Below, piece after piece: positions 3,033-53,492 of a stretch of DNA of 64,000 nucleotides. Source of the DNA: a bacterium. Lineage in GTDB: Bacteria; Patescibacteriota; Minisyncoccia; Phycocordibacterales; Zambryskibacteraceae. A model generated the notes under the pieces. The model made no database searches and was not told the DNA's origin. It was given only the letters and a program-made list of their open reading frames with translations. The stretch spans positions 13,486 through 77,485 of the forward strand of contig JAUSDP010000020.1 of assembly GCA_030650605.1 (NCBI GenBank), given 5' to 3'. A program made the translations under genes and the position numbers. Position 1 is the stretch's first letter. Each line of letters starts with the position of its first letter.

Positions 3033-3070
3033 GTCGCTTCCCTTTAACTTAAATCTTGTTAAGATAATTG

Positions 3071-3098
3071 ATTATAGTTCGTAGATTGATACTGTCAA
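3071..3098 (-). promoter_or_regulatory. consensus sigma70 promoter A1 (TTGACA-16 nt-TATAAT) reading leftward
   Basis: Reverse complement of 3071-3098 = TTGACAgtatcaatctacgaacTATAAT; near-identical copy at 4492-4520. Confidence 0.5.
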
Positions 3099-3382
3099 GC
3101 GTTATTTGAATCAATATCCGAACTAATTGCACGAAGTGCCGCCGCTTTATTTAACACGCCCCAGGAAGTAATCGAATACACCGGACCAACTTTCTCAATG
3201 CCGACTAAAAAGAACTTTGAAGCACTCTCCAGTGCACGACTGGCCTCAAGCCGCGTGCAATGTATGTCTTGCGCGATATAGTGCGCTGTGGCCCGTTCCT
3301 TTAGCCTTTCAACGGCAAACAGCGCTACTAGGTAGCGCCGTGGATCGTACTTTTCAAAATCCTTGTAATTGGCGGTCGCCAT
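3095..3382 (-). CDS. hypothetical protein
   Basis: 95-aa ORF. Confidence 0.4.
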   Translation of the reverse strand: MATANYKDFEKYDPRRYLVALFAVERLKERATAHYIAQDIHCTRLEASRALESASKFFLVGIEKVGPVYSITSWGVLNKAAALRAISSDIDSNNA

Positions 3383-4491: not shown

Positions 4492-4520
4492 ATAATATAG
4501 TTCGTAGGTTGATACTGTCA
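4492..4520 (-). promoter_or_regulatory. sigma70 promoter A2 (TTGACA-17 nt-TATATT), second copy of the A1 module
   Basis: Reverse complement = TTGACAgtatcaacctacgaacTATATT; about 30 bp near-identical to 3071-3098. Confidence 0.5.
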
Positions 4521-4663
4521 ACCGATATTTTTCCAAACGTTCGGATTAATTTGACGCGATGCGGTTGATCCTATTAAGTTATACGTAACTTGATCATTTG
4601 GGACTGCACGTTGTCCTAAATATGCCGTTTTTCACATTGCATAACGTGTCATATCCCGAGTAC

Positions 4664-5121: not shown

Positions 5122-7305
5122 TTATCCGCTTACTGGCTTTCCGATTCCGCCAGTTGGCGGGCTTTCTCCGCTAGGTTTGGTCGCACTTTTTGATACCCTA
5201 CCTGGCTGCATACCTCCACGAATCTGAACGACACCCGCAGTAAAATGGCTTTTGGCTCGATCGTCCGTATCTTTTCCTATTGTCCCACTTACATGTCCGC
5301 CGACCCATGAAATTACCTGGTCCGGGATGATATGAATCAGGTTGAAGCAACCGTGAATAAGGGTTAAAACCAGAGATACGAAAACAAAGACAAAACCAAC
5401 GAACATGACAAATCCTGTCGTGCTGTTGAACTGTGCGTTTGCCATCGCTGGCGCAAACAACACCAAGAGAACTGATCCCAATACTTTCACGGCATACGAT
5501 GCGCCGAAAAATCCAAACACCATCAAAGATGGGCGCAGTAATACTCCAAACAAAAACAGATAGGCATGTTGCGATCTCTGGCCCATACCATCACCTTCTG
5601 CTTCCAAATGTGCAAATGCACCTACTGGCGCGGCGATAAGACCCTCAAGGACATTGGCGAACCATGCCATGATGCCACCGAACCAAATAATAAACGGCAG
5701 CATCGGAATGTAGACGGCCAGTGTAATTCCGAATGCAAATAGTCCGACAATAGCCATGACTGCAAAGGGTGAAAATGCATCAAGAGCACCCTTTGCTATG
5801 CCTCTAAGTGCACCGGCTCCGACAAAGTCGGCTGCCATGCCAATTACAGAGCTTTTGGCGCCTTCTGCGGCACCAACCGTAATATGCGCTGCCGTGTACC
5901 CGCCTACGGCGGCGCTGCCCATCCAAATTAGTCCGTCACCCAAATCCTTGAACTCAATAATTGGGTTGACGACGCCGTTCCCAGTAATCGTCCATCTGGC
6001 CACCATATTAGTAATGGTTTGACCAGGGCTATGAAAAAGCTTGGAAATAATTCCGTCTTCACCGGCAACAGCCGCATCTTTATTAAAGTGCTGAACATTC
6101 GCCAGGTTTTTCAATGCGGCTTTGTACGTATCACTATAGGCAAATTTGTCGGGATCCTGCGGCGCGGTGATCCCTGTTTTTCCTCCCGCTACCGCCGTAA
6201 TTGTATCGCCAATGACTGCCAGCGATTGATAAAATGATCCCAATGCCATCCAGCCCTTATTTGTAATCTCTGCTGTAATCCGGCTCATTGCTGCGTTGGA
6301 CAGCGACGAAGCTTTTGTTGATAACGCGTTCGTCACGATTTGCTCATAAATCGTGGCCGCAGCATCAAATTTCGCCTGAAAATCGATGGATCCGTTGCCG
6401 CTGATGGTCGAGTTAAGATAATCTTGGGCGAGTTGTTGCATGGAAGCGTTCATGGACGCTAATGCCGCCTTATGAGCGGCCTTCGCATCCACCACAATCG
6501 ACGACACATCGATGATATTGGAATTTGAACTCATCTCTGTCAAAGTGATCCTGACGCTTCCGCACGCGCCATCGCCTCCCGATGTTACAGGTGCCTGGCG
6601 GGAATAGCTGTAGTCCAACATATCGGCAGAATTGAATAAGGAAACATTTGTCTCCGGGCCGCCAATGTTCCCATTGATGTCTACGGAATTACTGCTTGCC
6701 ATTGAATTATCGTTTGCCACAGCCAGCATGCATAGATTTGAATTAAACATTGCCTTTGCTGTTTCTTGTGCATTCTGATGAATGACCGCTGATGCAGTGT
6801 TGAATCCGCCAAGTGATGACAGCGCTGCGGCCACTACCAAATTTGCCATGCCAATTCCCATTTTGGCAAAATACATCATGATTACTTGGGCGCCACAGTA
6901 ACCGCCAAACATCGGGACCAGAGTTGAAATACCTACGATGAACCGAATGGGAAACCAGATTGTTGAGAATCGCTGTCCCATGAATTCGCCTCCCTCTGCC
7001 GTTTGGACGGTTGCTGCCGTCACGTTATAGGCAAACCAGAAGATGCCAACAGCCAATAAGGCGGCATTGAAAGTACCGAACATGGTGCCGAGTGTTGTCC
7101 CAGATCCGGACCCTGGCAGTCCAGGTGTTTGGTAGAACGTTTCTCCAAAGGCTTCAGCGAGTACGCGTCCGGCGAGATCGGTTCCATTGCTAGCTGCATT
7201 GAGCATGCCGGACGCCGTTACACTTTGCGCTACCGCTAAGCCGCAACTTGCCATTAGCAGCAGAAATGGGATGAGATTTTTTCTTTGGAAAATGTGATGG
7301 CGCAT
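5122..7305 (-). CDS. TrbL/VirB6-like type IV secretion inner-membrane protein (extended form)
   Basis: Signal peptide, about 400-aa hydrophilic domain, then at least 6 TM helices and a Gly/Pro-rich C-terminal tail (PTGGIGKPVSG), typical of TrbL/VirB6. Confidence 0.5.
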   Translation of the reverse strand: MRHHIFQRKNLIPFLLLMASCGLAVAQSVTASGMLNAASNGTDLAGRVLAEAFGETFYQTPGLPGSGSGTTLGTMFGTFNAALLAVGIFWFAYNVTAATVQTAEGGEFMGQRFSTIWFPIRFIVGISTLVPMFGGYCGAQVIMMYFAKMGIGMANLVVAAALSSLGGFNTASAVIHQNAQETAKAMFNSNLCMLAVANDNSMASSNSVDINGNIGGPETNVSLFNSADMLDYSYSRQAPVTSGGDGACGSVRITLTEMSSNSNIIDVSSIVVDAKAAHKAALASMNASMQQLAQDYLNSTISGNGSIDFQAKFDAAATIYEQIVTNALSTKASSLSNAAMSRITAEITNKGWMALGSFYQSLAVIGDTITAVAGGKTGITAPQDPDKFAYSDTYKAALKNLANVQHFNKDAAVAGEDGIISKLFHSPGQTITNMVARWTITGNGVVNPIIEFKDLGDGLIWMGSAAVGGYTAAHITVGAAEGAKSSVIGMAADFVGAGALRGIAKGALDAFSPFAVMAIVGLFAFGITLAVYIPMLPFIIWFGGIMAWFANVLEGLIAAPVGAFAHLEAEGDGMGQRSQHAYLFLFGVLLRPSLMVFGFFGASYAVKVLGSVLLVLFAPAMANAQFNSTTGFVMFVGFVFVFVSLVLTLIHGCFNLIHIIPDQVISWVGGHVSGTIGKDTDDRAKSHFTAGVVQIRGGMQPGRVSKSATKPSGESPPTGGIGKPVSG

Positions 7306-7313
7306 GGCTATTA

Positions 7314-7709
7314 TTACCTTGGAATCATTGCTGTTGCGGGATCCAGTTGATCTTCTGGAGAAATTGCCAGACTGTCGCGAGGCGCAATATCGATTGGCGT
7401 TGAAATCATGTCTAATGCACCAAGCACCGCAATGCCGGCCGACGCCAGGCTGAATGCGCAGCTGGCTCCCGACATGGCTTCCATACCAGAAATAGCGGTT
7501 TCTGCGACCTCCGCTCTATTCCCGTTGGTCGCCTTTTCCGCTTTGGCCGCGAGCTGTTGCTGCTGAAAATGAATAGATGTTGGATTTAGCGTCACCGCCC
7601 CAGATTGCGCGTTAGATGGCAAGTTTCGCTTTTGTACAGCAAGATCGCGAATATTTGCAGCAATTTCAGGGTTAATTGTTTTAGTGAGTTCGTTTTTTGG
7701 AATAGGCAT
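7314..7709 (-). CDS. hypothetical protein
   Basis: 131-aa ORF upstream of the TrbL-like gene. Confidence 0.35.
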   Translation of the reverse strand: MPIPKNELTKTINPEIAANIRDLAVQKRNLPSNAQSGAVTLNPTSIHFQQQQLAAKAEKATNGNRAEVAETAISGMEAMSGASCAFSLASAGIAVLGALDMISTPIDIAPRDSLAISPEDQLDPATAMIPR

Positions 7710-7717
7710 GGTATCTC

Positions 7718-8368
7718 TTACATTTTTGGTTGATCGGAATGTTCTGGCGAATCGGCAATTTTGGTTATATCCAAGTGCAATTTAAATGAATAGGCGATGT
7801 AATTCTCGTCTTCATTTAATTCATCGCCCTGCGCATCGCATACCGAAAATTCAAAATTTTCAGGAGCCGCGACCGGGACACTACTGTGAAATGTATCCAG
7901 TGCTACACCTGCATAATCTTTCAATGGTAGGTTTGAAGGTAACTGCACTTCATAAACGCCCGCTACCTTCAGGTCGTCCACATCCAAATTTTCGCTGGAC
8001 GAAATTTGGATAACGTGAACAGTCACATAAATCGGAGGCTTTACCATACCTCCCTGCGAAACTAACAACGGAGGTGGCAAAAAACCGGCAGGTTTGTCAT
8101 TTAGTCGATAATCACCGTCCGCTTGAATGCTTGCAATTATTTGCATTGCATAGTCTTTAGCAAGTTCGGGTGTTTTACGATACGACAATTGTCTGTCGTC
8201 TACAAAAACAGGATATCCATCTTCGCAACCATGGCCGACAGACCAATCGTGCAGCCCAACTTCACCGCGCATCATATTGGTTTCGCTTGGAATCATAAAT
8301 GGGCCAATTTGTGAACCTGGAGCTGCTTTCGCACATATAAGCGCGTCTGGGCCGAGGTTTTCAATCAT
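7718..8368 (-). CDS. hypothetical protein
   Basis: 216-aa ORF. Confidence 0.4.
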   Translation of the reverse strand: MIENLGPDALICAKAAPGSQIGPFMIPSETNMMRGEVGLHDWSVGHGCEDGYPVFVDDRQLSYRKTPELAKDYAMQIIASIQADGDYRLNDKPAGFLPPPLLVSQGGMVKPPIYVTVHVIQISSSENLDVDDLKVAGVYEVQLPSNLPLKDYAGVALDTFHSSVPVAAPENFEFSVCDAQGDELNEDENYIAYSFKLHLDITKIADSPEHSDQPKM

Positions 8369-8569
8369 TTAAGCCTCCGATTTATACTCAGCATTGATTG
8401 CGCAAGCATCGCGTGCAAGCTGTTCAGTTTCGCCAGAAAAATTGTCACATGTACCGAGTCCACTGATTTGAAACGTGCGCATAACTTTCTCTCTTTATTG
8501 TCCGTAGGTATAATACCATACGAATATAAATGTCTATGTTTTCTAATCCCCCTAATCACAGGAAATCAA

Positions 8570-9223
8570 ATGTTAAATCACCAAACTACACAACGAATGA
8601 TGCTATTAGACGATTGGATGAACGAATTTCAGCCTATCGCCAATCCAAATGATGAAGGTGAATGGATGTGCCAGACGGTAAATGGACTCACTGCTGGGCT
8701 ATTCAATTTGAATCATCCGAGGGATCGAACGTTTGTCGCCCTATGGGAGCAGGATCATCCCGACTGCGTTTGGACCGTCACCGCTGAAGGATATGACGAG
8801 AGTATTTCAAACGGTCGTTGTCAGGTTAATTATGGCAATACACTATTAACGCGAATCCCGTGCCCGTTTGATTCCATGATTACGGTAGAAACGATGGATG
8901 ACGACGACCGTTTTATGATGGCATTGAACGACGGAAATGTTGAAAAGATTACAGAATATCTTAATTCTGGAAAGGCTCTCCCATTTGGTCAAATGGATCC
9001 AGATCACGTTCTTGCGATCGCTCGGGAGACTGATGGCGATCAACCTATGCAACAAGAAGCAGCCGATTTATTGCACCGCTTGATTGCTGCAGGAAGTCTT
9101 GCCGCAAATTCTCCATATGGTCATGATAGATTTCTTGTGGACGTGCTTACCGAAGAAGGATACGAGTGGGCCGCGAACGCACTCGATGGATCAGTTAGTT
9201 CCAGGCAAACCGCGCCTGGCTAA
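8570..9223 (+). CDS. hypothetical protein (start at MLNHQTT with AGGAAA RBS)
   Basis: ORF 8468-9223; internal RBS-supported ATG. Confidence 0.45.
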   Translation: MLNHQTTQRMMLLDDWMNEFQPIANPNDEGEWMCQTVNGLTAGLFNLNHPRDRTFVALWEQDHPDCVWTVTAEGYDESISNGRCQVNYGNTLLTRIPCPFDSMITVETMDDDDRFMMALNDGNVEKITEYLNSGKALPFGQMDPDHVLAIARETDGDQPMQQEAADLLHRLIAAGSLAANSPYGHDRFLVDVLTEEGYEWAANALDGSVSSRQTAPG

Positions 9224-9239
9224 CTTAGATTAATACTTC

Positions 9240-9560
9240 TTAGCGAATACGTTTGAGCGTAACCATAGGATTTTTTGCGGTATTGCGATCAACCATCGTG
9301 TAGCGGATCGCGGCCCCTTTCATCACACCATCCGTGTATGTCACTGTGACGATATTTCCATCAATGTGGTAACTGACGTGTTCAATCATTCCCATTGCTT
9401 CGGTCTCGCCATGGCGGAATACTACTTTGAAGGGAAGCGGACCTATTGCATTCCATTCGCCCTCTAGTGGCCCCGGCGATTTGCCACATCCGGCCAGGAA
9501 GATTAACAGTGTCATGCCTAAGCAGAATTTACTCAAAGATTTCATTGGTTTAGTTGGCAT
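9240..9560 (-). CDS. lipoprotein
   Basis: Lipobox LAGC after a hydrophobic signal sequence. Confidence 0.5.
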   Translation of the reverse strand: MPTKPMKSLSKFCLGMTLLIFLAGCGKSPGPLEGEWNAIGPLPFKVVFRHGETEAMGMIEHVSYHIDGNIVTVTYTDGVMKGAAIRYTMVDRNTAKNPMVTLKRIR

Positions 9561-9841
9561 CAAGTTTGTGCATCAATTTTTGCGTAAAGAGAGTTTATCT
9601 CTTCTTGCATCATCATATTTTCTTGGTCGTTAGCATCCATCTCGTCAGACAGGACACTAATTCGATCAAGCATTTCTTGCTTAGTCGGTTTTGGTGCAAG
9701 TGACGATGAGCTAGAAGCTATGGGCAAAGTCCCACAAAAACCTTGTGAGATCTTCACTGTCGTATTTATAGGAACATCTGGCAGTCCTTTCAAATGTGCG
9801 TTCTTGTATCCTAGCGATTCAACATTAATTGTTTTCATCAA
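9560..9841 (-). CDS. hypothetical protein
   Basis: 93-aa ORF coupled to neighbours. Confidence 0.35.
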   Translation of the reverse strand: MMKTINVESLGYKNAHLKGLPDVPINTTVKISQGFCGTLPIASSSSSLAPKPTKQEMLDRISVLSDEMDANDQENMMMQEEINSLYAKIDAQT

Positions 9842-10286
9842 TTGTTCCTTTAACCGCTTCGGATTGTGTCGCTGAAGTTGCTTGTGCCATTTCAGCGCGA
9901 CGACGTTTGGCGATTTCTTTGCTCATTTGACTGCGGCCGAATCCATCGGTAGCAAAGATTGGCTCTCGACAGGTTGGACATATCGGCACCATTGTTTGGC
10001 TGCGCCACGCCGCCTCAACCAGTTGGGCTGCCTTTAAATGAAGAGTCTTTTTTTCGATTGATGCCTGTTCATCGTACTTGCGCTGCAACTTAGCGAATGC
10101 CTTCTGGTAGTGCTCTGACAGCATTTGCAACGCCCAGAACGCCGACACCTGTTTCTTGCAGTCGTCGCACGTTACGATGTCGCCTTCGCCGTCCATCGAC
10201 AGGTGCATGTGTTTGCACTCGGTCGATGACCATGACCGCCTCGTTCTGGTCAATCGCATTTCCTCAATTTGGATTACATTACTCAT
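9825..10286 (-). CDS. zinc-finger protein (CxxC ... CxxC)
   Basis: CDDCKK ... CPTCRE motifs. Confidence 0.4.
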   Translation of the reverse strand: MSNVIQIEEMRLTRTRRSWSSTECKHMHLSMDGEGDIVTCDDCKKQVSAFWALQMLSEHYQKAFAKLQRKYDEQASIEKKTLHLKAAQLVEAAWRSQTMVPICPTCREPIFATDGFGRSQMSKEIAKRRRAEMAQATSATQSEAVKGTIDENN

Positions 10287-10538
10287 ACGGTTATGGTATT
10301 TTTTTTGGAAGAGGAAATTTTTTCATTTGGATTAAGTTTCTTAAAAACCTATTTGAAACTTTTCCAATTTAACGCTGGTGTCGACAGAGATTTAACTACA
10401 TCGACACTACTTGCCATGTTGCGTTTGCCAGATCTCACCAAAGTGAGGGGACCGCCAGCTGATAAATGGTTTTGTCTAGCGCGATCCACTGAACGTTGAA
10501 TTTTAGATTTTTGGGTGAGTGACATAAAAACTGTTCCG

Positions 10539-11102
10539 TTAATTGACAGTAATTGCTTTGTGAATCGTAACCGGGCTCATGCCATTCATCATCATCGCTA
10601 TCTGACGAATACGCGCCCTTTCTTCCGGTGTCTTTTGCTCATCATGAGTTTCTTCGCTATCGTCGAGAGAAGGCGCGTAAAGTTTATTTTTATGGATAAA
10701 TGCAGTAAGCAACTTAGTCATCTCTGCGTGAAGGGCTATTTGTAAGATCGCGAACATGAATTCCACTTCAATATGTTCAGCCGGAGTCAATTCGTAGGAA
10801 CACTTTGTTCTAACGCGTTTGACAGATCGCACCATGATTTCGTTCTTCCCGGTCACCTTCCTAACTATCTGAGCTAACAAGATGCGTTCATTTTCGCCAG
10901 AATAAGTCAACTCGACCCAAGCCCTTTTTGCGTCATTTTGGCTGACATCTTCCAAAGTAAGGCCATATTTGAGAAGCATTTTTGCCAGCATGGCTTCGGC
11001 AGCTGCTTTCTCTCCGTCTACACCTCGTTCTGCTAACGCCAAAATTTTCTTGATTCGGCGCATGACGTCATCGGACAATTTATTCATCTGTCTATTTTCC
11101 AA
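10539..11102 (-). CDS. DUF2786-like protein
   Basis: N-terminal RIKKILALAERGVDGEKAAAEAMLAKMLLKYGL resembles the DUF2786 signature common in plasmids and phages. Confidence 0.45.
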   Translation of the reverse strand: MENRQMNKLSDDVMRRIKKILALAERGVDGEKAAAEAMLAKMLLKYGLTLEDVSQNDAKRAWVELTYSGENERILLAQIVRKVTGKNEIMVRSVKRVRTKCSYELTPAEHIEVEFMFAILQIALHAEMTKLLTAFIHKNKLYAPSLDDSEETHDEQKTPEERARIRQIAMMMNGMSPVTIHKAITVN

Positions 11103-11282
11103 TAATAAGTACGAGAATGAACACTATCGCAAGCAAGGCAATTAGTTTCGCGATTTGCCAACGAGCAGCATCTTCACCAGCGTGTTTGCCACGGACGTAT
11201 GCTTTCTGTTCTGGCGTAATTGCGACGTGTTCCTCAAGGCTTCTAGTTAGGCGTTCAAAATCTGGCATAGTTTCTGGTCACG

Positions 11283-11786
11283 TTAGGACACAACTTCGAT
11301 TGGAGAAAAAATTTCGTCAATTTTCGGACGAGATAAGAACTCGTTTTTTAGGGCCACTCTTAGTCCTTTTCCTAGCGTTCCAAATAGGCCATACGATTTC
11401 CAGTTGCATGGATCTTTTTTAGTTGATGAAACAGCGTTGCACTCATACGGATTGGTTGACTCGCCAGAACATGATGGGCACCGATATTTTCCAGACGGAT
11501 AGCGCTTTTTAAACGCTTCAATATCATCAAATAGAACCACGCTCTCCAAACTTGGGAAATTCGCCTCCTGATAATAATTGGATGCCGAGTAGTCTCGCTT
11601 TGCCTCGATCGCCATCAATATATCTGGCTCTGATTGACCCAATATTCGAGAATATTCACACAGTGTTTTCGTGATAAACATTAACAGATCGTTGGCTCGC
11701 CCTTCACCCACTGCGCCAGGCCAAGAATTTCGCGCTTGGTCGGCTAATTTGTTAAGTGTTAATTGCAATTCTTCTGAACTACTCAT
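11283..11786 (-). CDS. hypothetical protein
   Basis: 167-aa ORF. Confidence 0.4.
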   Translation of the reverse strand: MSSSEELQLTLNKLADQARNSWPGAVGEGRANDLLMFITKTLCEYSRILGQSEPDILMAIEAKRDYSASNYYQEANFPSLESVVLFDDIEAFKKRYPSGKYRCPSCSGESTNPYECNAVSSTKKDPCNWKSYGLFGTLGKGLRVALKNEFLSRPKIDEIFSPIEVVS

Positions 11787-11913
11787 TTCAGTCTCCTTTT
11801 AATCATATTGATTTATACGATACATTAAAATTTAACCGTGTCAAATAATTCAAATCAAAAAGAAACGCCCTACAGGTGCTTCGTAGGGCGATAAGCAAAT
11901 TGAAATGGAAATA

Positions 11914-12894
11914 TTAATGCTTTGGACCGATGGCGCTTTCTTCTTCAGAATGTTCATGCGCAATGTGTGATCCATTATTTATCGTGGATTCATGTTTTTT
12001 TGAAGCGTCTGCCTTCTCTATTTCCATCAAGTTGGCGGAAAAGTCTGCTGTAATGGATTCAATACCGGCGATCGCCTTTCTAGCCAAACCGCTGACAAAT
12101 GATGTTGCCGTCATCTCGGTCGCTTTTGCAACATTGACGGTTTTGGCGACAAAAGCGTCACCCGCCTGAACAACGGTCGAGATTCGCGAACTTGCCGCAA
12201 CAACCGTGCGATCACGCATTTCCTTAGCTTCATGGATCGTAAATTGGATTATTTCGGCGCTAGCATCTGCAATGCTGATCGCTTTCGCTTTGGCAGTACT
12301 AATGACTTTCGCGGGAATGCCCTTGATCACAGCGGCCATTTTCCCCATGAAATTGGCGACTCGCCTCACTTCGTCAATAAATGCGGTGGTGACTTCCTGC
12401 CCGGTCTTGATTTTTTGGCTGGCCTGCGTTTTGGTGGCATCTATTTTCAATAGAACCGATTCAATAAATGGACTGTTTTTGATGTTTTCAGCAAATACTT
12501 CAAGCTTTTCTTTTGCATTTTCCATCGATTTCGAACTGCGATCAAACAGGGTTTCGGCTTGTTTTACGTTTCCATTGCGGAAAGATAATACGCCTTCAAG
12601 AGCGGCAATTCGGGAATCCAAAACATCCAATTTTGCGGCATTCACTTTGGTAAGAGCCTTTTCGGCCGCAAGTGAATCTTCTAACGCACGAATCCTGTTA
12701 CTTGCCAAACGAAGGGCTAAAGTTGATTCGTTCACGTTAAGCAAAGCGGCCTCTTCGAACTCCTCCATCTTGGCCTCGATTACGTCATAGCCTGCAGTTG
12801 CATTTAAAGGGCCATCATTGAGTTCCAAGTTGAAGTCTTCATTCCGCAGAATTGGTTCTTTTCGTACATCTTCATTTGCTATGTTCAGGCCCAT
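11914..12894 (-). CDS. coiled-coil protein
   Basis: 326 aa with long heptad-like A/L/E/K-rich stretches. Confidence 0.45.
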   Translation of the reverse strand: MGLNIANEDVRKEPILRNEDFNLELNDGPLNATAGYDVIEAKMEEFEEAALLNVNESTLALRLASNRIRALEDSLAAEKALTKVNAAKLDVLDSRIAALEGVLSFRNGNVKQAETLFDRSSKSMENAKEKLEVFAENIKNSPFIESVLLKIDATKTQASQKIKTGQEVTTAFIDEVRRVANFMGKMAAVIKGIPAKVISTAKAKAISIADASAEIIQFTIHEAKEMRDRTVVAASSRISTVVQAGDAFVAKTVNVAKATEMTATSFVSGLARKAIAGIESITADFSANLMEIEKADASKKHESTINNGSHIAHEHSEEESAIGPKH

Positions 12895-17559: not shown

Positions 17560-17931
17560 CTAAATTAATACAACAAGCTCTGAGTATCCCACCAAGACTT
17601 CGTCGTGAGTGAAAAAATACAATCGGTCGCACACAGCCTGTGAGATTAGAATTCTGTCAAACTCATCATCGTTGAGATCGGGAAGGTGCGCGACCATAGC
17701 AGCGTGCGCAGCGGTAACAGGCAATTCCTTAAACCCATTTTGCTCAATAGCTCGTACTAGTGTACCAATCTCATTATCAAGTTTGCCTTTGTGGATAAGA
17801 ATCGATGCCTCCCATATTGATGCTGCGCTCACAAAAACATCGGTCGCCAGTGATATTTTTGTGCGAGCAATTTCCGCTAGTTCTGAACTAAGCCATAGTA
17901 AATATGTGTGTGTATCAAGTAGAATTCGCAT
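17560..17931 (-). CDS. vapC: PIN-domain toxin, VapC family
   Basis: MRILLDTHTYLLWL N-terminus and DRILISQA, classic VapC; GAGGGA RBS before MRILL. Confidence 0.75.
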   Translation of the reverse strand: MRILLDTHTYLLWLSSELAEIARTKISLATDVFVSAASIWEASILIHKGKLDNEIGTLVRAIEQNGFKELPVTAAHAAMVAHLPDLNDDEFDRILISQAVCDRLYFFTHDEVLVGYSELVVLI

Positions 17932-17988: not shown

Positions 17989-18213
17989 TTATTTCAGACG
18001 TACAAATGAAATGATCGTGACGTAACGATTGCCAGACCAACTTTCTTTGTGCATTTCTTTGATGTGAATGAGTCCTTCATGGCTCATTCTTTCAGCTTCG
18101 GCGACGACAGTTTGAAATCCTTCTAGAGTCCCACCATCTGAGTTATCAGGTTTCATCACGCCTGCGCTTCCAACGTTAGTTGCATCGCAGGTTGTTTGTG
18201 CCACATTGCGCAT
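17989..18213 (-). CDS. putative cognate antitoxin (non-canonical; no recognisable AbrB, RHH or Phd fold)
   Basis: Small ORF 58 nt upstream of vapC on the same strand. Confidence 0.3.
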   Translation of the reverse strand: MRNVAQTTCDATNVGSAGVMKPDNSDGGTLEGFQTVVAEAERMSHEGLIHIKEMHKESWSGNRYVTIISFVRLK

Positions 18214-18221
18214 ATTGCTTC

Positions 18222-18436
18222 CTATTTGTTATACACCTGAATAAGCCAACCGTAACCTGGCGTTGCTTGATCGACTTTGACACGATGGCCCTGATAACAA
18301 AACGCGGCCTGGAATGCCTCAAGTTCTTCCACAACACAAAATGAAAAGCCGTCACCGAACTGACAAAAATTACTGGTCTTAATAACTCTATGTTCGCCGC
18401 CAACCTTCAAGTGTAAATTTCCAAGTTCTCTCGCCA
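18222..18436 (-). CDS. hypothetical protein (start at MARELG with AGGAGAA RBS)
   Basis: The ATG of the longer ORF (18473) lies inside the -10 of promoter B1, so the downstream RBS-supported ATG is preferred. Confidence 0.35.
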
Positions 18437-18471
18437 TGTTAGTTCTCCTAAGATTGTCTGAACGTGGCTCC

Positions 18472-18500
18472 ATAATAGTAACGGTGCGTTACTATGTCAA
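18472..18500 (-). promoter_or_regulatory. sigma70 promoter B1 with a palindromic spacer (TTGACA-TAGTAACGcaCCGTTAC-TATTAT)
   Basis: Reverse complement reads TTGACAtagtaacgcaccgttacTATTAT; spacer is the inverted repeat TAGTAACG/CGTTACTA; second copy at 20525-20553. Confidence 0.5.
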
Positions 18501-18782
18501 GAACAGAATTAACTTGTCTAATTTATTTTTGGGAAGTTCGATGTTCATCGCCGCTAACTCATCTGCCAGAACTTTGCGCATCATGTAACGCCGAACTGTG
18601 ACAGGACAACGTTCCAACTCGTAGCCCCGTCCTGCCACAACGGACGGCCAATTGTGCTTGTAATTTGTTCCAGCAACAGCATTCAAATCAGCGAGTATAT
18701 CAACCATTGGACGACCACTCGCACGTTCTATGGAGATCCAGCGTTCGAACAACCCAGGGATTCGTGTATTCGTCAAATCCAT
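18492..18782 (-). CDS. hypothetical protein
   Basis: 96-aa ORF. Confidence 0.35.
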   Translation of the reverse strand: MDLTNTRIPGLFERWISIERASGRPMVDILADLNAVAGTNYKHNWPSVVAGRGYELERCPVTVRRYMMRKVLADELAAMNIELPKNKLDKLILFLT

Positions 18783-18827
18783 CCGTTCTACCTATCTCGT
18801 AGTTAAATGCATAAGGATTCCTAATAT

Positions 18828-19121
18828 CTAATTTTCAAAGATATCCATCGTATGGATATCTTTCAGAGGGCTCGACAAGGGTATCAAGTCTTTGAGCGGA
18901 GTGTTTTTGTCGCCGCCATAAGGTATGCAATCGCCAGTCCACTCTGGCTCTAATCTAGCCAAATGTTCGAGACTTTCGATCGGTACGGCTGCATCTGTAC
19001 TTAACTCGCTATCGCGAACTATCTCGAAAGAATTTTCCTCCGCGACTAAATGCGCCTGCAGAAGGCTGTCGGCCATTACCACGGCCGTGACCTTCAGCTC
19101 AACAAAATATGGTTTCAACAT
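18828..19121 (-). CDS. hypothetical protein
   Basis: 97-aa ORF. Confidence 0.35.
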   Translation of the reverse strand: MLKPYFVELKVTAVVMADSLLQAHLVAEENSFEIVRDSELSTDAAVPIESLEHLARLEPEWTGDCIPYGGDKNTPLKDLIPLSSPLKDIHTMDIFEN

Positions 19122-19410
19122 GTCTGTTCCCGTTTGGAATTCTATAAATGATACGCTTCAATGAAAACCGAAATTTTAAATGTTCAAACTCTTCCACGAC
19201 TTTTCTCTATTTTAATTTAAAAAAACGCCTCGCCAAAAACAAGCAAATGATGAATAACACAAACGTGACGGATGATGTGCGACCTCTGATTGCAAACGCA
19301 AAAATGAGCGTCAAGAATCCACACAATACCAATAGCGTGGCGACGCCGGCCTTACTGTCAAGTAGCCGTAGTCCAAACACAACGAATATCCATCTCATCA
19401 TTTAATTCCT

Positions 19411-20436
19411 TTAGGCCGGGCCGACCAAAGTATCAAGACCTGCCCCGGCATTCAATACAAGATCGCGGCGGATTCGCTTGCAAAAATCTACGACTGCAGA
19501 CAGGTTAGATAGATCCATAAGCGCAATACGGTCAGCTAAATGAAGCACATCGTGTCCGGGAGTGATGCTTGGAGATAGCTCCTTCCGAGCACACTGAAAA
19601 CGCAACTCAACGGTCGGTGTCGGCACTTCAATAACAAAATCGAAGCGACGCTTGAGGGCACTGTCGAGCAAGCTGTCAGCATTGGTCGCTGCCACAAGCA
19701 CGCACGACGATGGAATGCGTTCAATAGCAATGAGCAATTGGTTGGTTACTCGCCGCATTTCGCCAATGTCCCGGTTGTCGTTCCGGTCCATGCCAATGCC
19801 GTCAAACTCATCCAAAAATAAGACGCACGGAGCAGTCTTCGTATATTCAAAAATACTTTGGAGGTTCTTGCCTGTCTCGCCAAGATGGCTGTCAATCAGC
19901 CCACCGTATTTGACGCGAAGAAATGGGATTGACAACTCGAACGCAAGTGCCTCGGCTAACATCGTTTTACCGTTACCAGGTGCTCCATGCAAAAGCACCT
20001 TGTGTCGAGGAACCAATCCATACGCCGCCAGATCACTGCTACGGTTATGTTCGGCAACAATTTCCATGCACTCTCGTTGAATTTCAAGCGGCAGAATGAC
20101 AGCGTCAAAACCGTGCCTTGCCTCTTCAAATTCCAGAAGTCTTTCGGGCTTGACGGCCAACTGCCGCATCTCTTTGCCGAACATTGATCGAATCTTCTTC
20201 GACACATCTGGATGGTGGGCTTCTACAGCGCTAGCAATACTCTCACCGACCACCGAAATACGATCTTTTTGATTCCATTGGAATGCCTCAATTAACTTCG
20301 GGAGCTGCTTTATCGCCGCTGTCTCAGCTAGTCGTTTTTGCACCTTGACCGGAATTGGTGGTTCGTCCAGGAGATTATTTTGAGTATTAATTTGATTATT
20401 CACTTTTGTCCTCTTAATTTGCCTTAGCAACGCCAA
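19411..20436 (-). CDS. AAA+ ATPase (classic AAA clade)
   Basis: Walker A GAPGNGKT, Walker B LFLDEFD, and second region of homology (ATNADSLLDSALKRRFD). Confidence 0.8.
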   Translation of the reverse strand: MALLRQIKRTKVNNQINTQNNLLDEPPIPVKVQKRLAETAAIKQLPKLIEAFQWNQKDRISVVGESIASAVEAHHPDVSKKIRSMFGKEMRQLAVKPERLLEFEEARHGFDAVILPLEIQRECMEIVAEHNRSSDLAAYGLVPRHKVLLHGAPGNGKTMLAEALAFELSIPFLRVKYGGLIDSHLGETGKNLQSIFEYTKTAPCVLFLDEFDGIGMDRNDNRDIGEMRRVTNQLLIAIERIPSSCVLVAATNADSLLDSALKRRFDFVIEVPTPTVELRFQCARKELSPSITPGHDVLHLADRIALMDLSNLSAVVDFCKRIRRDLVLNAGAGLDTLVGPA

Positions 20437-20524
20437 TCAACTTATCGCAGTCCATGTAAAACTTAGACTGAACCGAATTCGTTCAAAATCTCTAGCTAAT
20501 AACGTTTAGCCTTCAATTCAATTG

Positions 20525-20553
20525 AGTATAGTAACGTAGCGTTACTATGTCAA
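20525..20553 (-). promoter_or_regulatory. sigma70 promoter B2 (TTGACA-TAGTAACGctaCGTTAC-TATACT)
   Basis: Same module as B1; lies between the XRE regulator gene and the AAA ATPase gene. Confidence 0.5.
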
Positions 20554-20564
20554 GATTATTTACA

Positions 20565-20867
20565 TCAGGTAGATTCTTTTCTAGTTCTAGGGCGGGACGC
20601 TCTTTGGCGCAATTGTAATGGCGCTTTAAATGCATTCATTGTTGGCAGGGTATCAGGCACTGCAACATCTAAGCCTCCAAGCATACCAAGGGCACGAAAT
20701 TGTTTAATAAAACTCGATATGCGAATATCTTCGCCGGCTTCCAATTTTGCTAAAGTTTTTTTATTTAAGCCGGACTTAGTCGCCATCGTATCGAGAGACA
20801 TATTTTTGTCTAAGCGACGCTGACGCATACGAGACCCAAGTTCCGCAAGGATCTCACTGTCCGTCAT
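20565..20867 (-). CDS. XRE-family helix-turn-helix transcriptional regulator
   Basis: MSLDTMATKSGLNKKTLAKLEAG is a typical Cro/CI-type HTH. Confidence 0.7.
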   Translation of the reverse strand: MTDSEILAELGSRMRQRRLDKNMSLDTMATKSGLNKKTLAKLEAGEDIRISSFIKQFRALGMLGGLDVAVPDTLPTMNAFKAPLQLRQRASRPRTRKEST

Positions 20868-21064: not shown

Positions 21065-21988
21065 TTACGCAGCTTTTTCGTCACTGTCTTCCAATATTAA
21101 TCCGCCCAGAGCAAAGAACAAATCATCAAGCATTTTCGAGAGTTCGCCGGCCATTAAGATAAAGTCCGCATCAAATCTTTCTCCTTCGTCGCGTGGTTGG
21201 GCGTCTGCCTCTCCACTTAGAATATCGAGTGGTTTAATACTTTTAATCGCCAAAGTATCCGTAAGCACAAACGAAATTCGATCGTTCCAGGTTAGCGCGA
21301 GTTTTGTGCATTCTTTTCCTGCGGCAATATGCCGGTGCACATCGTCAGCGTCTAAACTATGTCTTACATACCGCACTGTCGCTTTGTCCTCTGTATGCGC
21401 CTTTAACTCGGTATCCTGATCGATCGTGAAGCCTTTCGGCGCCTCATTTCCGAGTAGCCAGGACGTCATGGCTTGCTGAGGCGAGATCTTAACGCGAACA
21501 CTTTCAAGTCCAATGTCGTTAAAAGATTTTAAAAACATTTTGATAATTTCATCCGACTTGGTTGGTGATGACGTATTAAAGATCAACCAGCCATTGACTG
21601 AATCGATCCAAACCAGAACGCTTCCAGTTAAGCTAAATGCCCGTGGCAGTAATTCGTCTGTGACCCGTTCCTTGAGTTCTTTCATGTGCTTTCGTCCAGG
21701 CTTGAAGCCTTGCTCCTCCTCAATTTCGCACGCTTTCATTTTTGTGAAATGCGTAATGACCGAGGCTGGCAGTAATTTTTTCTCGGTCTCGAATCGGAGC
21801 AATAATTGCCTATCAACGTGATGAACGAATTTCCCGTTGTCGCATGGTGAAATCCAACCCGAACTAATCATATCCATGCTCGTGCATGGCTGAAATGCAT
21901 GCGCTAACAGCATCGATTCCATCTTTTCTTGAATCAGTCTTAACTTCGCAACTGAAATTTGATAGATCTGAAGATTTCTGAAAAACAT
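21065..21988 (-). CDS. rdgC: recombination-associated protein RdgC
   Basis: N-terminus MFFRNLQIYQIS and C-terminal RFDADFILMAGEL match RdgC along its full 300-aa length. Confidence 0.9.
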   Translation of the reverse strand: MFFRNLQIYQISVAKLRLIQEKMESMLLAHAFQPCTSMDMISSGWISPCDNGKFVHHVDRQLLLRFETEKKLLPASVITHFTKMKACEIEEEQGFKPGRKHMKELKERVTDELLPRAFSLTGSVLVWIDSVNGWLIFNTSSPTKSDEIIKMFLKSFNDIGLESVRVKISPQQAMTSWLLGNEAPKGFTIDQDTELKAHTEDKATVRYVRHSLDADDVHRHIAAGKECTKLALTWNDRISFVLTDTLAIKSIKPLDILSGEADAQPRDEGERFDADFILMAGELSKMLDDLFFALGGLILEDSDEKAA

Positions 21989-35172: not shown

Positions 35173-35383
35173 CACATCCTCTGTTTATTAATTTCGTATA
35201 TGTAATATTACACGGAAATTATAATAAAAGGAATTATGAAACGATACAAAATTAATTGGCGTACTAGCTACTCTACGAAATTCTATGGTGATTTTTTGTT
35301 TGGTTGCCGCTTCTCAAAAATTAATGCCTCACGGCCAATATAGCGAGATCGAGTTCCTACCTGCCGGCACCTTTAACTTCTTT

Positions 35384-35717
35384 TTCTCACCCCTGCACGC
35401 AGGGTATAACCATCCGAGCAACGTGTTGGTGGCACACGATCACTTCTCAACCCTGCACGCAGGGGGGATAACATGGCTGTCGGTGCTGGCGTCGTCATGT
35501 TTAATTTCTCACCCCTGCACGCAGGGGGGTAACAAACCGGTGTGGCACAACTCTTTACGTCTTCCATTCTCACCTCCGCACGCAGGGGGATAACAAGGTT
35601 AGTACAGTCGGTTGGTTTTCTGCCCTATTCTCACCCCTGCATGCAGGGGGATAACAGCATTGCAAATTGCCGGAGGATCGCCGGACCCGTTCTCACCCCT
35701 GCACGCAGGGGGATAAC
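35384..35717 (-). CRISPR. CRISPR array: 6 repeats of 27-29 nt (consensus GTTCTCACCCCTGCACGCAGGGGGATAAC on the plus strand) with 5 spacers of 32-33 nt; I-E-like hairpin repeat. Strand is uncertain: minus is inferred from the cas operon orientation and the degenerate distal repeat
   Basis: Repeats at 35384-35410 (degenerate, AGGGTATAAC), 35444-35472, 35505-35533, 35566-35594 (two substitutions), 35627-35655 (one substitution) and 35689-35717; spacers are unique. Confidence 0.85.
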
Positions 35718-37631: not shown

Positions 37632-38846
37632 CTATCGAGCTAATTTTTTAGCAGCAGCTTTGGCTTCTTTTTCAAGTGCCTTTGCCGCCTTTTCTTCAGC
37701 TGCTTTCAGCGCTTTTTCTTCGGCTTTGCGCTCCTTATCAACCGCTTTGGCCGCTTTTTCTTCGTCAGTGGCAATCACTGGTGGCTTCATGATGGCGTCC
37801 AGACGCTCTCCACTCAATTCAGACGCAGCAATTTTCCACGCATTCAAATAGACAGCAATTGATGGATCAGCTTTGATCAACGAGTTATTGTTAAAAATCG
37901 TATCGGTCACATCAACATTGTCACCAGTATTAATCGCGATCGCCACATCATTGAGGCGAATACGGCCAAGTCCATTACGAGTTTGTCCACCGATGGACGT
38001 TTTTGCCAGTCCATCAAGACTTAACAAAAATAGACCAATTTGTGCATCGGTAACATCGGTCAATTCAACAGTAAAATCAAAATCAACGCCTGGATCTACA
38101 AATTCAAATGCACTCCACGCTTTAGTGCTGTTGCGACTTCCTTTTTCTTCTGCGTCCTTCGCTAGCTGATCCTCAATGATCAACCGCTGACGTGCATTAA
38201 ATTGAACTTCAAAGTCCGTTACAACACCTTCCATCCGATCTACATCAAGAAGTGCACTAACGTCATCGCCGCGTCGAAATGCCGCCCCGCGCGAAATATT
38301 CATGCCCGATGTTGCTTTCCCTACTCCCCGTGGGTGACCTACAGAAAAGCCAGATGATCGCAGACTATCCATGACGGGCACTGCATCAAGAACACGCATA
38401 CGACGACGCAACATACGCGGACCACCACCAAAAAGTCCAACATAAGGATGTGACGATACCTCCTTATATTCAGCAAACGTCAGATCGCGAGAATCGGGCT
38501 TTCCTGTCACAGCGCCGCAAGTAATTGCAGAGTACGTTTGCAAAGTGATCTTTTGATTCTTCTCACGAAGAACATTGACAAGAATTTGAGCACCCTGACG
38601 ACGCAAACGACCTGCAATATTATTCGCGGCAATGACAGCGACACCATAATCGAGTCCATCGACAGATCCAGGGGCAAAACGACGACGCTGAATACCGGCA
38701 CAGGCGATGCCTCCTTTGGTTCCGTTTTTAACAAGGCCATAGCCGGTTGAATCGCTTACTTCGTAGCGGAAGGTTTCTGGTGATGCGATGTGCAATGGAG
38801 ACAAAGTAGTCAAGATTGCGTGGATGGTGACTGATTTTTTGGACAT
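37632..38846 (-). CDS. csf2: Cas7-group RAMP, Csf2-like backbone protein, with an unusual Lys/Ala/Glu-rich C-terminal tail
   Basis: N-terminal TTLSPLHIASPE (Cas7 signature); about 350-aa RAMP body; C-terminal EEKAAKAVDKERKAEEKALKAAEEKAAKALEKEAKAAAKKLAR. Confidence 0.55.
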   Translation of the reverse strand: MSKKSVTIHAILTTLSPLHIASPETFRYEVSDSTGYGLVKNGTKGGIACAGIQRRRFAPGSVDGLDYGVAVIAANNIAGRLRRQGAQILVNVLREKNQKITLQTYSAITCGAVTGKPDSRDLTFAEYKEVSSHPYVGLFGGGPRMLRRRMRVLDAVPVMDSLRSSGFSVGHPRGVGKATSGMNISRGAAFRRGDDVSALLDVDRMEGVVTDFEVQFNARQRLIIEDQLAKDAEEKGSRNSTKAWSAFEFVDPGVDFDFTVELTDVTDAQIGLFLLSLDGLAKTSIGGQTRNGLGRIRLNDVAIAINTGDNVDVTDTIFNNNSLIKADPSIAVYLNAWKIAASELSGERLDAIMKPPVIATDEEKAAKAVDKERKAEEKALKAAEEKAAKALEKEAKAAAKKLAR

Positions 38847-40416: not shown

Positions 40417-40574
40417 GTTGTGTGTCCAATTATTTGTTTAGTTGGTGTAACGAATATTACTCTACAAAAAAAATATAGCAAGTAGGAATTTAATTTTAAT
40501 AAGTAAATACACTTGATGAAATTTTCTTTATTTGGGCTATAATTTGCCCATATTAACCAATGCCGAGGATTCTC
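40417..40574. promoter_or_regulatory. divergent promoter region between the cas operon (minus) and dinG (plus)
   Basis: AT-rich 158 bp; TATAAT at about 40538 on the plus strand; TTGCTA-16-TAATAT on the minus strand. Confidence 0.35.
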
Positions 40575-42872
40575 ATGAACGCAGCCGCACAGCGAAATGT
40601 ACAAGTGCCTTTGGTAGATCCCGTCAAAAACCACGTCGGGGCCTCGATCTCAGATGCTTATCGCAGTCTTATTCGTTTTGCCATTAATGCAAAACTACCT
40701 CCGAAAGCAGTAGAACTTGAAGGTATTCCTCGTGTAAGCGTGTTTTTCCCGCCTGCGTTATTCGCTCAAATCTCAGAAATCGCTGAACTTCATCAACTGT
40801 CATATCAATCTACAGTAGCTGGGCTGGCGATAGCCGGTGCAGAAAAAATAGCCGAAAAAAATGAATTGGTAGAACAATTCAAAAGTGATGTTCCATTTAG
40901 GGCGCGTCCGGAACAAGTTCTTTTCTACCAATCAATTATGGCCGGGCTGTCATCATCTAAAATCGTCGTTGCAGAAGCCTCTACTGGCGCAGGCAAGGGA
41001 CGTGCATTGATGGCTGCCGCTATCGCATCAGCTCAAAACGGAAAACTCCCTGTCATCGTCGCAGCACCAACAATCGTCGTCGTTAATCAACTATGGGCTG
41101 AACTGCAGGTACTTCGCACGCAAGACAATATGGGACCGCTTATTTCAGCAACGATCCTACCTGGCTCTGCAGATCTGGCAGATGACGTCAAACTTTTGGA
41201 GTGGGCAAACGATCCTGATTTTAATCAACTCGATCCTGCGGTGACAGAATGGATCCTTAAGGGTGGACCTCACAAAGCTAACGATGCGATGGCGCAAGTA
41301 GCCAAAGAACAAGGAATTACCCTTTGCTGGATGATGTCCGACTTGCAAGAGATTGCAACTAACTTCCCTTCTGATGACTATGTTTTAACGACGAATAGCG
41401 AAGACAAGACAACGCTCTCGCAATCGCGAGAATTGTTAGCCAAAATTCGTGAAGCCGCCAATCGGAAAGACGTCGATAAAAATATGAACACGGTTCACGC
41501 CGGTGCGGACATTATCCTTTGCACCCACGCCATGTTAGCGCTTGGACAAATGACAAAATGGGTTGTGCTCCCGCAACCAAAAGTGCTGATCGTCGACGAA
41601 GCCCATCTTCTAGAAGAAACAATTTCAAGAATGAATAGTCAGCAAATTTCACTATTTTCGATTAGTTATCGCCTAAGCCGTTTTTGCCGCGCAACAGGGG
41701 CAGGAAAAGGAACCGTAGCCAGGGACACTCAAGCAAAGGCCAAACAGTTCCTGCGTACTTGTATGGAAATGTCAAACAATGATATTCGTCAAAAACTCAA
41801 TGACGATCCGTCTAAATATGACACTGTTCAAAAGGGATTGGCCAGTCTCGCCAATATGGTTAAAAACAAGGTTTTTAAGTCGGATCCAACCATTCAAAAA
41901 GATATGTATTCTCTTTTGTCTGGCACAGCCAATATGATGGAGAAGGATCGGTCCAAAAACAGTACGCATCTTCAATTCTCTCCTGATAGGCGGTACCCAT
42001 TGATCAGTGTCGGAGCCGATACGATCGGAATGCAGGCTGGAGCCATTTGGAAGACCGTAGACGGTGGTGCCGTACTTGCGTCGGCTACCATGTACATCAC
42101 CGATGAATATGGCAACCAGAAGTGCGATTACGTGGTTCGAAATCTTTCAATCCCGCTCTCCAGGCTGGACACCCCTCTTCCTGTCGTGAGCAGCTATATT
42201 TACACCCTTCCAACACTATACTTACCAAAAAAAGAAAACTATGCGGCACTGTCTCGCCCAGCATTGAAAGAGAGGGAGGACCCTCAAGTGGAGAAAGAAT
42301 GGTTGAAAAATATTGCTGATGTTGTCGCCAAAAATGCTAAAACATGCAAAGGCGGAACGCTGGTACTCACAAATTCCTATGACCAGATTGACGAGATCTC
42401 CACGCAACTGAAAGAAAAATACCCTGAGATCGCGGCCAGAGTCATTGTCCAGGTACGCAAGGCAAAATTTTCAGCCGCAGTGAACGCATTCACTCTGGCG
42501 CATAGCAATGGCGTAAAGCCGATTTTGATTGGGCTTGGCCCGGCCTGGACAGGGCTCAATTTGTCGCAAGATGTATCCGATCCTAAAAAAGATACTCTGC
42601 TGATGGACCTTGTCATCGCCTGTAGCCCGATCGGACTGAACCAAACTGCGACAATGCTTCGCCGTATTGAGCAAACCAATACAAGTGCGATAGCGAAAGA
42701 AGGACTACTTATTTTAAAACAAGGGCTTGGGCGGTTGATTCGTCGCGATGGTGTTGAAGGACGTCGAATTTGGATCTTGGATGGCAGAATCTGGTCAGAT
42801 AATTGGCTGAAGCAATTTACGGGGCCGGCTAAACGTTTGTTGGGTAAATATAAAAATGTGGATTATTTTTAG
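40575..42872 (+). CDS. csf4: DinG-family (Rad3/XPD-like) SF2 helicase, CasDinG/Csf4-like
   Basis: Walker A AEASTGAGKGRA; DEAH box VDEAHLLEE; about 766 aa; GAGGA RBS; divergent from the cas operon. Confidence 0.8.
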   Translation: MNAAAQRNVQVPLVDPVKNHVGASISDAYRSLIRFAINAKLPPKAVELEGIPRVSVFFPPALFAQISEIAELHQLSYQSTVAGLAIAGAEKIAEKNELVEQFKSDVPFRARPEQVLFYQSIMAGLSSSKIVVAEASTGAGKGRALMAAAIASAQNGKLPVIVAAPTIVVVNQLWAELQVLRTQDNMGPLISATILPGSADLADDVKLLEWANDPDFNQLDPAVTEWILKGGPHKANDAMAQVAKEQGITLCWMMSDLQEIATNFPSDDYVLTTNSEDKTTLSQSRELLAKIREAANRKDVDKNMNTVHAGADIILCTHAMLALGQMTKWVVLPQPKVLIVDEAHLLEETISRMNSQQISLFSISYRLSRFCRATGAGKGTVARDTQAKAKQFLRTCMEMSNNDIRQKLNDDPSKYDTVQKGLASLANMVKNKVFKSDPTIQKDMYSLLSGTANMMEKDRSKNSTHLQFSPDRRYPLISVGADTIGMQAGAIWKTVDGGAVLASATMYITDEYGNQKCDYVVRNLSIPLSRLDTPLPVVSSYIYTLPTLYLPKKENYAALSRPALKEREDPQVEKEWLKNIADVVAKNAKTCKGGTLVLTNSYDQIDEISTQLKEKYPEIAARVIVQVRKAKFSAAVNAFTLAHSNGVKPILIGLGPAWTGLNLSQDVSDPKKDTLLMDLVIACSPIGLNQTATMLRRIEQTNTSAIAKEGLLILKQGLGRLIRRDGVEGRRIWILDGRIWSDNWLKQFTGPAKRLLGKYKNVDYF

Positions 42873-43130: not shown

Positions 43131-43463
43131 ATGAATCAGAAAGCTTCCATGAAAAACTCCTTCATACCCTCATTCCAGTGTGAATCTGCCCTTGAAGACA
43201 TGGGTAGTAAGTTGCGCATTGCGCGACTTCGCCGTAACGAGTCGGTGCAAATCGCCGCGCAACGTCTTGGCATCTCTCGCGCCAAGTATCAACGGCTTGA
43301 AAATGGCGACTCGAACGTATCCGCTGGCGCATTGATTGAAGCGCTCATCCTGTACGGCTTTGAATCGCAGGTATTTGCCCTGGCGGACCCAGATTTAGAT
43401 GAAACTGGAAAAAGGTTAGAAAAACAATTGCTCCCAAAACGAGGACGTACTCATGCAAAGTAA
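43131..43463 (+). CDS. hipB: HipB-like XRE HTH antitoxin (start uncertain)
   Basis: LRIARLRRNESVQIAAQRLGISRAKYQRLENG is an XRE HTH; overlaps the downstream hipA by 11 nt. Confidence 0.7.
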   Translation: MNQKASMKNSFIPSFQCESALEDMGSKLRIARLRRNESVQIAAQRLGISRAKYQRLENGDSNVSAGALIEALILYGFESQVFALADPDLDETGKRLEKQLLPKRGRTHAK

Positions 43464-53396: not shown

Positions 53397-53492
53397 TGGT
53401 TTAGAAAAAAAGTATTTCGATGAATTAACAATACAGGAAATTTTGACCGTGTCAAATTTAAGGATTTAATTCGGGTACAAATGAAAGCTTTT

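Follow-up and report, generated by a model that had tools for sequence, protein, structure and literature searches.

Two promoter-like modules, each with a palindrome lodged between its -35 and -10 elements, raise the question of which molecule, if any, reads that palindrome. They lie in a stretch of 64,000 nucleotides (nt) of bacterial DNA (assembly GCA_030650605.1, contig JAUSDP010000020.1, positions 13,486 to 77,485 of the forward strand), which we call the window and on which all coordinates below are given unless another contig is named. One module, B1, occupies 18472-18500 and the other, B2, 20525-20553, both on the minus strand. B1 sits at the 3′ end of orf96 (18492-18782, minus strand), a gene for a protein of 96 amino acids (aa) and the last gene of the operon begun at B2. 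We argue that B1 and B2 are probably (at roughly 60%, in our estimate) strong sigma70-type promoters whose dyad is the operator of ORF96, the product of this gene and a putative autorepressor.

The sequence anatomy of both modules is real. B1 reads TTGACA tagtaacgcaccgttac TATTAT, with the -35 hexamer TTGACA at 18495-18500, the dyad TAGTAACG-CAC-CGTTACTA at 18476-18494 and the -10 hexamer TATTAT at 18472-18477, and B2 reads TTGACA tagtaacgctacgttac TATACT, with the corresponding parts TTGACA at 20548-20553, TAGTAACG-CTA-CGTTACTA at 20529-20547 and TATACT at 20525-20530. The dyad, TAGTAACG-N3-CGTTACTA, has arms of 8 base pairs (bp) and a 3-bp centre, and its final TA doubles as the first two bases of the -10. 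B1 and B2 are the top two sigma70-like matches in 14-24 kb of the window, each scoring 11/12, and the spacer is 17 bp in both and in every homologous module listed from the other loci; this optimal spacer, together with the near-consensus hexamers, points to repression and not to activation. Two copies of the dyad are found in the window at up to three mismatches, B1 and B2 alone, against 0.05 expected, and the 26-nt module TTGACA-TAGTAACG-N3-CGTTACTA-T (18475-18500 and 20528-20553, two central bases left free) likewise matches twice against 0.00 expected, which bears out the two copies reported in a preliminary description of this DNA. The repeat extends over 28 nt (18475-18502 and 20528-20555), beyond which the flanking DNA is unrelated. 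B1 overlaps the last 9 nt of orf96 (...ctg ttc TTG ACA TAG) and hence is not intergenic: its -35 consists of codons Leu95-Thr96, and the TAG stop codon provides the first 3 nt of its dyad. B2, a solo copy, lies 12 nt past the stop codon of an XRE-type gene and about 120 nt ahead of the GTG start of an AAA ATPase gene.

About 25 loci were compared, comprising a Massilia genome, 17 metagenome loci, further contigs and four plasmids of Ralstonia and Burkholderia (individual loci carry L numbers where they need to be told apart). A scan of 185,579 genomes (one per species) for TTGACATAGTAACG-N3-CGTTAC gave a single match, in Massilia oculi. The locus there holds two exact dyads and has neither the XRE nor the AAA ATPase gene; a 93-aa orf96 homologue has one dyad (TTGACA-...-TATAAT) at its stop codon, and the other (TTGTCT-...-TATAAT) is found 1.2 kb upstream, ahead of an unrelated 244-aa gene. 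The layout of B1 recurs at the 3′ end of orf96 homologues elsewhere, which in nearly all loci end in TTGAC(A/G) TAG, followed by the dyad and then, with a 17-bp spacer, by a -10. All 20 homologue genes compared stop at TAG, and 19 have TTG as their penultimate codon; TTG accounts for 24.5% of the remaining Leu codons in these genes.

Over 20 distinct loci the information content is 1.7-2.0 bits at the -35, at both arms and at the TA...T of the -10, whereas the three central bases carry 0.1-0.8 bits and the positions past the -10 about 0.1 bits. Conserved hexamers and arms with a free centre and free flanks are what marks a promoter whose dyad is read by a protein; coding constraint does not leave this pattern. 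The arms are complementary at each position in 21-27 of 28 distinct operators, and position 6 of the arm and its mirror (base 14 of the 19-bp dyad) form A-T in 18 operators, C-G in seven and G-C in one; in L029 both operator copies carry the same variant at this position. With hexamers and arms conserved and the arms covarying, it is strongly supported, from comparison of sequences, that B1 and B2 are promoters with an operator inside, kept as a selected unit, and to this extent the operator-in-promoter interpretation of the preliminary description holds; occlusion by a repressor, the mechanism it proposed, is likewise well supported.

A second operator copy takes one of two positions. The window has it upstream of orf96, as B2, and an equivalent solo copy is found there in L009, L018 (90 nt upstream), L023, L032 and L034, and the window's order of an upstream operator followed by orf96 with its terminal operator is also that of L009, L018 and L032. 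In L029, the Ralstonia plasmids, the B. gladioli plasmid bgla_3p (L044) and a B. vietnamiensis plasmid, the second copy instead spans the start codon of orf96; it reads TAGTACCG-GCA-TGGTACTA, within which ATGGTACT encodes M-V-L. Whole units are also reiterated. In L040 (an ENA scaffold of 201,574 bp; 5163-12260 of that scaffold) there are four near-identical units made of orf96, the promoter and a conserved 5′ untranslated region with a ribosome-binding site (RBS), each preceding different small genes, at intervals of 2-2.7 kb along an array whose small genes all point the same way, with one orf96 copy truncated at its 5′ end; such repeats could be substrates for recombination between the blocks of cargo genes. 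Locus L028 has two orf96 paralogues (L028a and L028b), each with its own variant operator at the 3′ end.

The case for ORF96 as the reader of this operator starts from what travels with it. When the open reading frames (ORFs) of the 17 loci with flanks are clustered, no gene but orf96 turns up in every locus, the other apparently shared clusters being shadow ORFs that overlap it. Two complete plasmids were assembled, p71.9 of R. solanacearum (71,852 bp) and p1_2003Ycf867 of B. vietnamiensis (73,850 bp), and orf96 is the sole family common to the window and both of them. With up to three mismatches allowed, operator-like sites number exactly two on each of them, one at the start and one at the stop of orf96. 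As the complete plasmids share orf96 alone with the window, the binder should be either ORF96 or a host protein.

Residue 48 of ORF96 and arm position 6 of the operator also vary together. A valine at residue 48 goes with A at position 6 (the window, L009, L018, L020, L023, L025-L028a, L032, L033, L035, L037 and L040), lysine with C (L029-L031 and L043-L046), aspartate with G (L028b) and leucine with T (L051). This covariation fits direct readout of the base by ORF96 and is suggestive of it. A tyrosine-recombinase-like neighbour (219-231 aa) was considered as the binder and rejected, being present in 6 of the 17 loci only; a 3-bp centre is in any case unfit as a recombinase core site.

ORF96 itself is all-helical in its structural model, and its most conserved stretch is GTNYKHNWPS. 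It has no family annotation and 61 homologues, whose C-terminal Leu never varies and whose final Thr hardly does; an exhaustive profile search resolved the family into 62 clusters at 50% identity, and a Pfam scan of its longer members gave no informative domain. More tentatively, and somewhat short of even odds, ORF96 may be the founder of an unrecognised family of small helical DNA-binding proteins, whose gene is fused to its own self-repressing promoter as a cassette reiterated among arrays of cargo genes, with bursts of expression after transfer and readout of arm position 6 by residue 48.

One apparently chromosomal homologue stands apart. In L051 (2640-2772 of that contig), an orf96 homologue of 43% identity lies near rpmB/rpmG and upstream of an RlaP-like gene; an 8-3-8 dyad of another sequence, CTGTATCG-TAG-CGATACAG, precedes the gene, and its 3′ end carries no promoter.

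The main alternative remains that the operator is genuine and is read by another protein, supplied by the host or by a regulator encoded elsewhere on the element, with orf96 merely carrying the promoter. We regard this as unlikely. It is favoured by the lack of a recognisable DNA-binding fold in ORF96, by the range of identified hosts and by the part of the contig covered, and further observations also weigh against ORF96 as the binder. ORF96 has no match in Pfam, NCBIfam or PHROG, comparisons of sequence and fold place it in no recognisable DNA-binding fold, and its most conserved stretch is the part of the model with the lowest confidence. The covariation of residue 48 with base 6 rests on about four lineages, and the class with lysine and C may be a single clade. 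The distant orf96 homologue L053 has no comparable dyad. The motif search covered the 64-kb window of a contig of 164.8 kb, so that further copies or a regulator of the element may sit outside it, and as those hosts that could be identified are all Burkholderiales, a factor that Burkholderiales-like hosts share could be the binder instead. DNA binding by ORF96, transcription starts at the modules and a repressive effect are, moreover, all three things that we infer. On the other side, a regulator elsewhere on the element has to contend with two complete plasmids that have no gene but orf96 in common with the window, and the operator variant shifts with the sequence class of ORF96 even between the paralogues L028a and L028b of one contig. 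Operators at both the start and the stop codon of orf96 are, furthermore, what would be expected of an autoregulator.

The readings in which the palindrome is no protein-read site, or is read by the XRE protein, fare worse. That the repeat is a remnant of a duplication or a chance match with no regulatory role might be suggested by its length of a mere 28 nt and its two copies in the window, but with a chance expectation of about zero and a module retained across genera, where ORF96 homologues share as little as 44-55% identity and adjacent DNA is unconstrained, the comparative data effectively refute it. It is also highly improbable that the palindrome acts as an RNA hairpin, one that terminates transcripts, marks a processing site or stabilises mRNA at the end of orf96 or the XRE gene, and not as an operator. 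Both sites are at or just past a stop codon, and their 9-bp RNA stems are predicted at -8.2 kcal/mol for B1 (z = -2.5) and -9.9 kcal/mol for B2 (z = -4.8). Neither site, however, has the makings of an intrinsic terminator, as the stem is AT-rich and the tail (UAUUAU or UAUACU) has no U-tract; a terminator scan called neither of them, and Rfam gave no match over 16-22 kb of the window. Natural operator variants contain non-wobble mismatches (C-A, G-A, G-G and A-A) yet keep their register with the -35 and -10, the solo upstream copies are not located at gene ends, and a hairpin leaves unexplained why TTGACA and TA...T are conserved as much as the arms.

The preliminary description had proposed instead that the XRE protein (100 aa, HTH_3 domain, HipB-like; 20565-20867, minus strand), whose gene ends 12 nt upstream of B2, binds the dyad, represses both promoters and thereby governs a small regulon. 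A protein of this class can read such a site: on two phage contigs of low GC content, the same palindrome appears to serve XRE-type Cro/CI proteins as their operator. Comparison of sequences nonetheless makes the XRE protein very probably wrong as the regulator of B1 and B2. Searches with tblastn found no homologue of it in the roughly 25 other loci that bear the module, and the XRE-type genes on the plasmids are orthologous neither to it nor to each other. Among 5.8 billion proteins it has two homologues, the closer (L002) at 77% identity and with a HipA kinase gene 13 nt downstream of its own, and GTAACG-N3-CGTTAC is absent from the contigs of both. Homologues of the XRE protein and of the ATPase thus occur without the palindrome, and neither neighbour of B2 travels with it. 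Within the window the XRE protein is closest to the two hipB genes (E about 4e-5), whereas its matches to the phage repressors are at E 0.3-0.4. Upstream of its own start (20867) there is no dyad at up to three mismatches; what it shares with its two homologues is a conserved ATCC-N8-GG(T/A)C at its own -10 (ATCC-N8-GGTC in the window), which resembles a HipB operator. By these sequence comparisons the protein beside B2 is a relative of HipB-type antitoxins with a putative operator of its own, and we judge its gene to be outside the module. The idea of a small regulon survives in reduced form, as two promoters in the window and two sites on each complete plasmid, but not as a regulon of the XRE protein, and the case shows that gene adjacency is a weak guide to the regulator.

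The phage contigs merit a description of their own. A scan of viral contigs with the bare dyad gave eight matches, six of them seemingly incidental and the other two operators of phage immunity; inspection of the ORFs found an orf96 homologue in none of the eight. The two are IMG/VR contigs of 35-37% GC (L011, 8233-8282; L013, 4218-4236 and 4471-4499; positions on those contigs), on which an identical TAGTAACG-N3-CGTTACTA, together with degenerate copies within TTGACA...TATxxT promoters, lies between divergent XRE-type genes, one cI-like and one cro-like. These palindromes look like a convergent operator that is read by unrelated repressors.

If ORF96 is the binder, as we favour, a simple circuit can be proposed. 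The promoter at B2 (P1, with its operator) would drive a first set of cargo genes, the IetA-like ATPase and small genes, and then orf96, at whose end the promoter at B1 (P2, with its operator) would drive the next set, namely the 71-aa, 74-aa and PIN genes and those beyond. A dimer of ORF96 on TAGTAACG-N3-CGTTACTA would cover the -35/-10 face and keep RNA polymerase off. Binding would thus let ORF96 hold down the operon in which its own gene comes last, as negative autoregulation, and together with it the operon that follows. In a newly entered cell that lacks ORF96, both near-consensus promoters would fire and then shut down as the protein accumulates.

The genes so arranged are all on the minus strand. 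Downstream of B2, the IetA-like AAA+ ATPase (Pfam AAA 1.4e-30, PADLOC IetA 4e-72) is encoded at 19411-20403, with 330 aa from a GTG start at 20403 that is likelier than the start of the full ORF (19411-20436); the preliminary description had placed both this ORF and the XRE gene correctly. A possible membrane ORF of 64 aa (19207-19401) comes next, upstream of a 97-aa gene (18828-19121) that is B2-operon cargo between the ATPase and orf96. Past B1 follow a 71-aa gene (18222-18437; RBS AGGAGA), whose start is 34 nt beyond the B1 -10, a 74-aa gene (17989-18213) and a PIN-domain gene (17560-17931), and these three are variable cargo of the second operon. Upstream of the XRE gene lies RdgC (21065-21988).

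By sequence comparison the ATPase, the first gene downstream of B2, is likewise variable cargo and does not behave as a constant partner of the module. Its close homologues (76-83% identity; L004-L008, on mobile elements) have no XRE gene and no motif upstream, and the notion that the promoter is the ATPase's own was rejected on these grounds. Homologues of the ATPase adjoin RdgC in many mobile elements. Its NCBIfam IteA score of 189 bits is under the 510-bit cut-off, and the IetS protease partner of the Ietas anti-phage system was not found adjoining it. A blastn search of PLSDB plasmids with 17-22 kb of the window gave weak matches to RdgC and the ATPase alone.

The window also encodes TraW, ArdC, a topoisomerase, a large methylase-helicase, two hipBA pairs and a type IV-like CRISPR-Cas locus, a content from which we conclude that it derives from a conjugative plasmid or an integrative element. 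The two hipB-hipA pairs are complete and on the plus strand (43131-44775 and 45031-46696), and the XRE gene at 20565-20867 on the minus strand is an orphan of the HipB-like kind. A CRISPR-like array at 35381-35717, with at least six repeats of core CTCACCCCTGCACGCAGGGGGATAAC at a period of about 61 bp, adjoins genes for a RAMP-family protein and a DinG-like helicase (37632-38846 and 40560-42872), an arrangement suggestive of type IV-A CRISPR-Cas.

Two further duplicated promoter-like sequences occur in the window. A 95-aa gene (3095-3382, minus strand; region 3070-3382) has its TGA stop codon within a consensus -35 (gcT TGA CAg), followed after 16 nt by TATAAT; its 61-nt promoter module has a duplicate at 4496-4556, and homologues of the 95-aa protein are present in several orf96 loci (L018, L025, L032 and L040). 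Here too, as at orf96, a small gene has a promoter built into its end. The other is a 30-mer at 11817-11846 and 53428-53457, reading ATTTGACACGGTTAAATTTTAATGTATCGT on the minus strand, whose copies are 83% identical.

Should ORF96 prove to be the binder, it would represent a new DNA-binding family and a portable unit for the control of early and accessory genes, in which a repressor gene ends in its own target promoter. Each block of cargo genes would then receive a burst of expression after transfer, and the repeats would provide homology for shuffling the blocks. Direct readout would also predict that ORF96 V48K favours TAGTACCG-N3-CGGTACTA and that the Ralstonia protein with K48V favours TAGTAACG, and a specificity of one residue for one base could be useful as an orthogonal set of repressors and promoters.

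How does such a unit relate to systems already described? A literature search for the two arm sequences returned incidental primer and sequence matches only. MerR-type promoters likewise have a dyad between the -35 and the -10, but their spacers are over-long (19-20 bp) and an activator is needed to realign them; with the optimal 17-bp spacer in both copies, MerR-like activation is excluded here. In HipB-HipA autoregulation the operator is TATCC-N8-GGATA. The XRE protein of the window is of this kind, given a homologue encoded ahead of hipA and ATCC-N8-GG(T/A)C at its own -10, although it has no adjacent hipA, and that site differs from the TAGTAACG dyad. The Cro/CI switches of phages also use an operator dyad with 8-bp arms that overlaps promoter elements; in contrast to them, there is no divergent gene pair at B1 or B2, the XRE protein of the window is HipB-like with an unrelated recognition helix, and the module travels with orf96.

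The closest parallel lies with the global repressor networks of plasmids. In the IncW plasmid R388, six plasmid-encoded repressors hold down strong promoters through feedback loops, and transfer is followed by a burst (PMC3937220); IncP-1 plasmids have the global network of KorA, KorB, TrbA and KorC (PMC4889941), and the IncU plasmid RA3 has the KorC repressor (PMC7414963). As in those networks, we find repeated operators in strong, near-consensus promoters of a conjugative element, promoters that head runs of small establishment or accessory genes, and a repressor, here putative, that is encoded inside the operon it would control, with negative feedback and an expected burst on entry. ORF96 differs in having no detectable relation, in sequence or fold, to KorA, KorC, TrbA, ArdK or any helix-turn-helix family, and the unit does not belong to those repressor families. 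Its operator, moreover, fills the spacer between the -35 and the -10, and the gene-plus-promoter unit occurs up to four times on one element (L040). The modules thus look like a self-repressing promoter unit of plasmids and integrative elements, set apart by a promoter built into the last codons and stop codon of the candidate repressor gene, so that the 3′ end of that gene is fused to its target promoter, by operators at both ends of the gene, and by its reiteration along arrays of small cargo genes.

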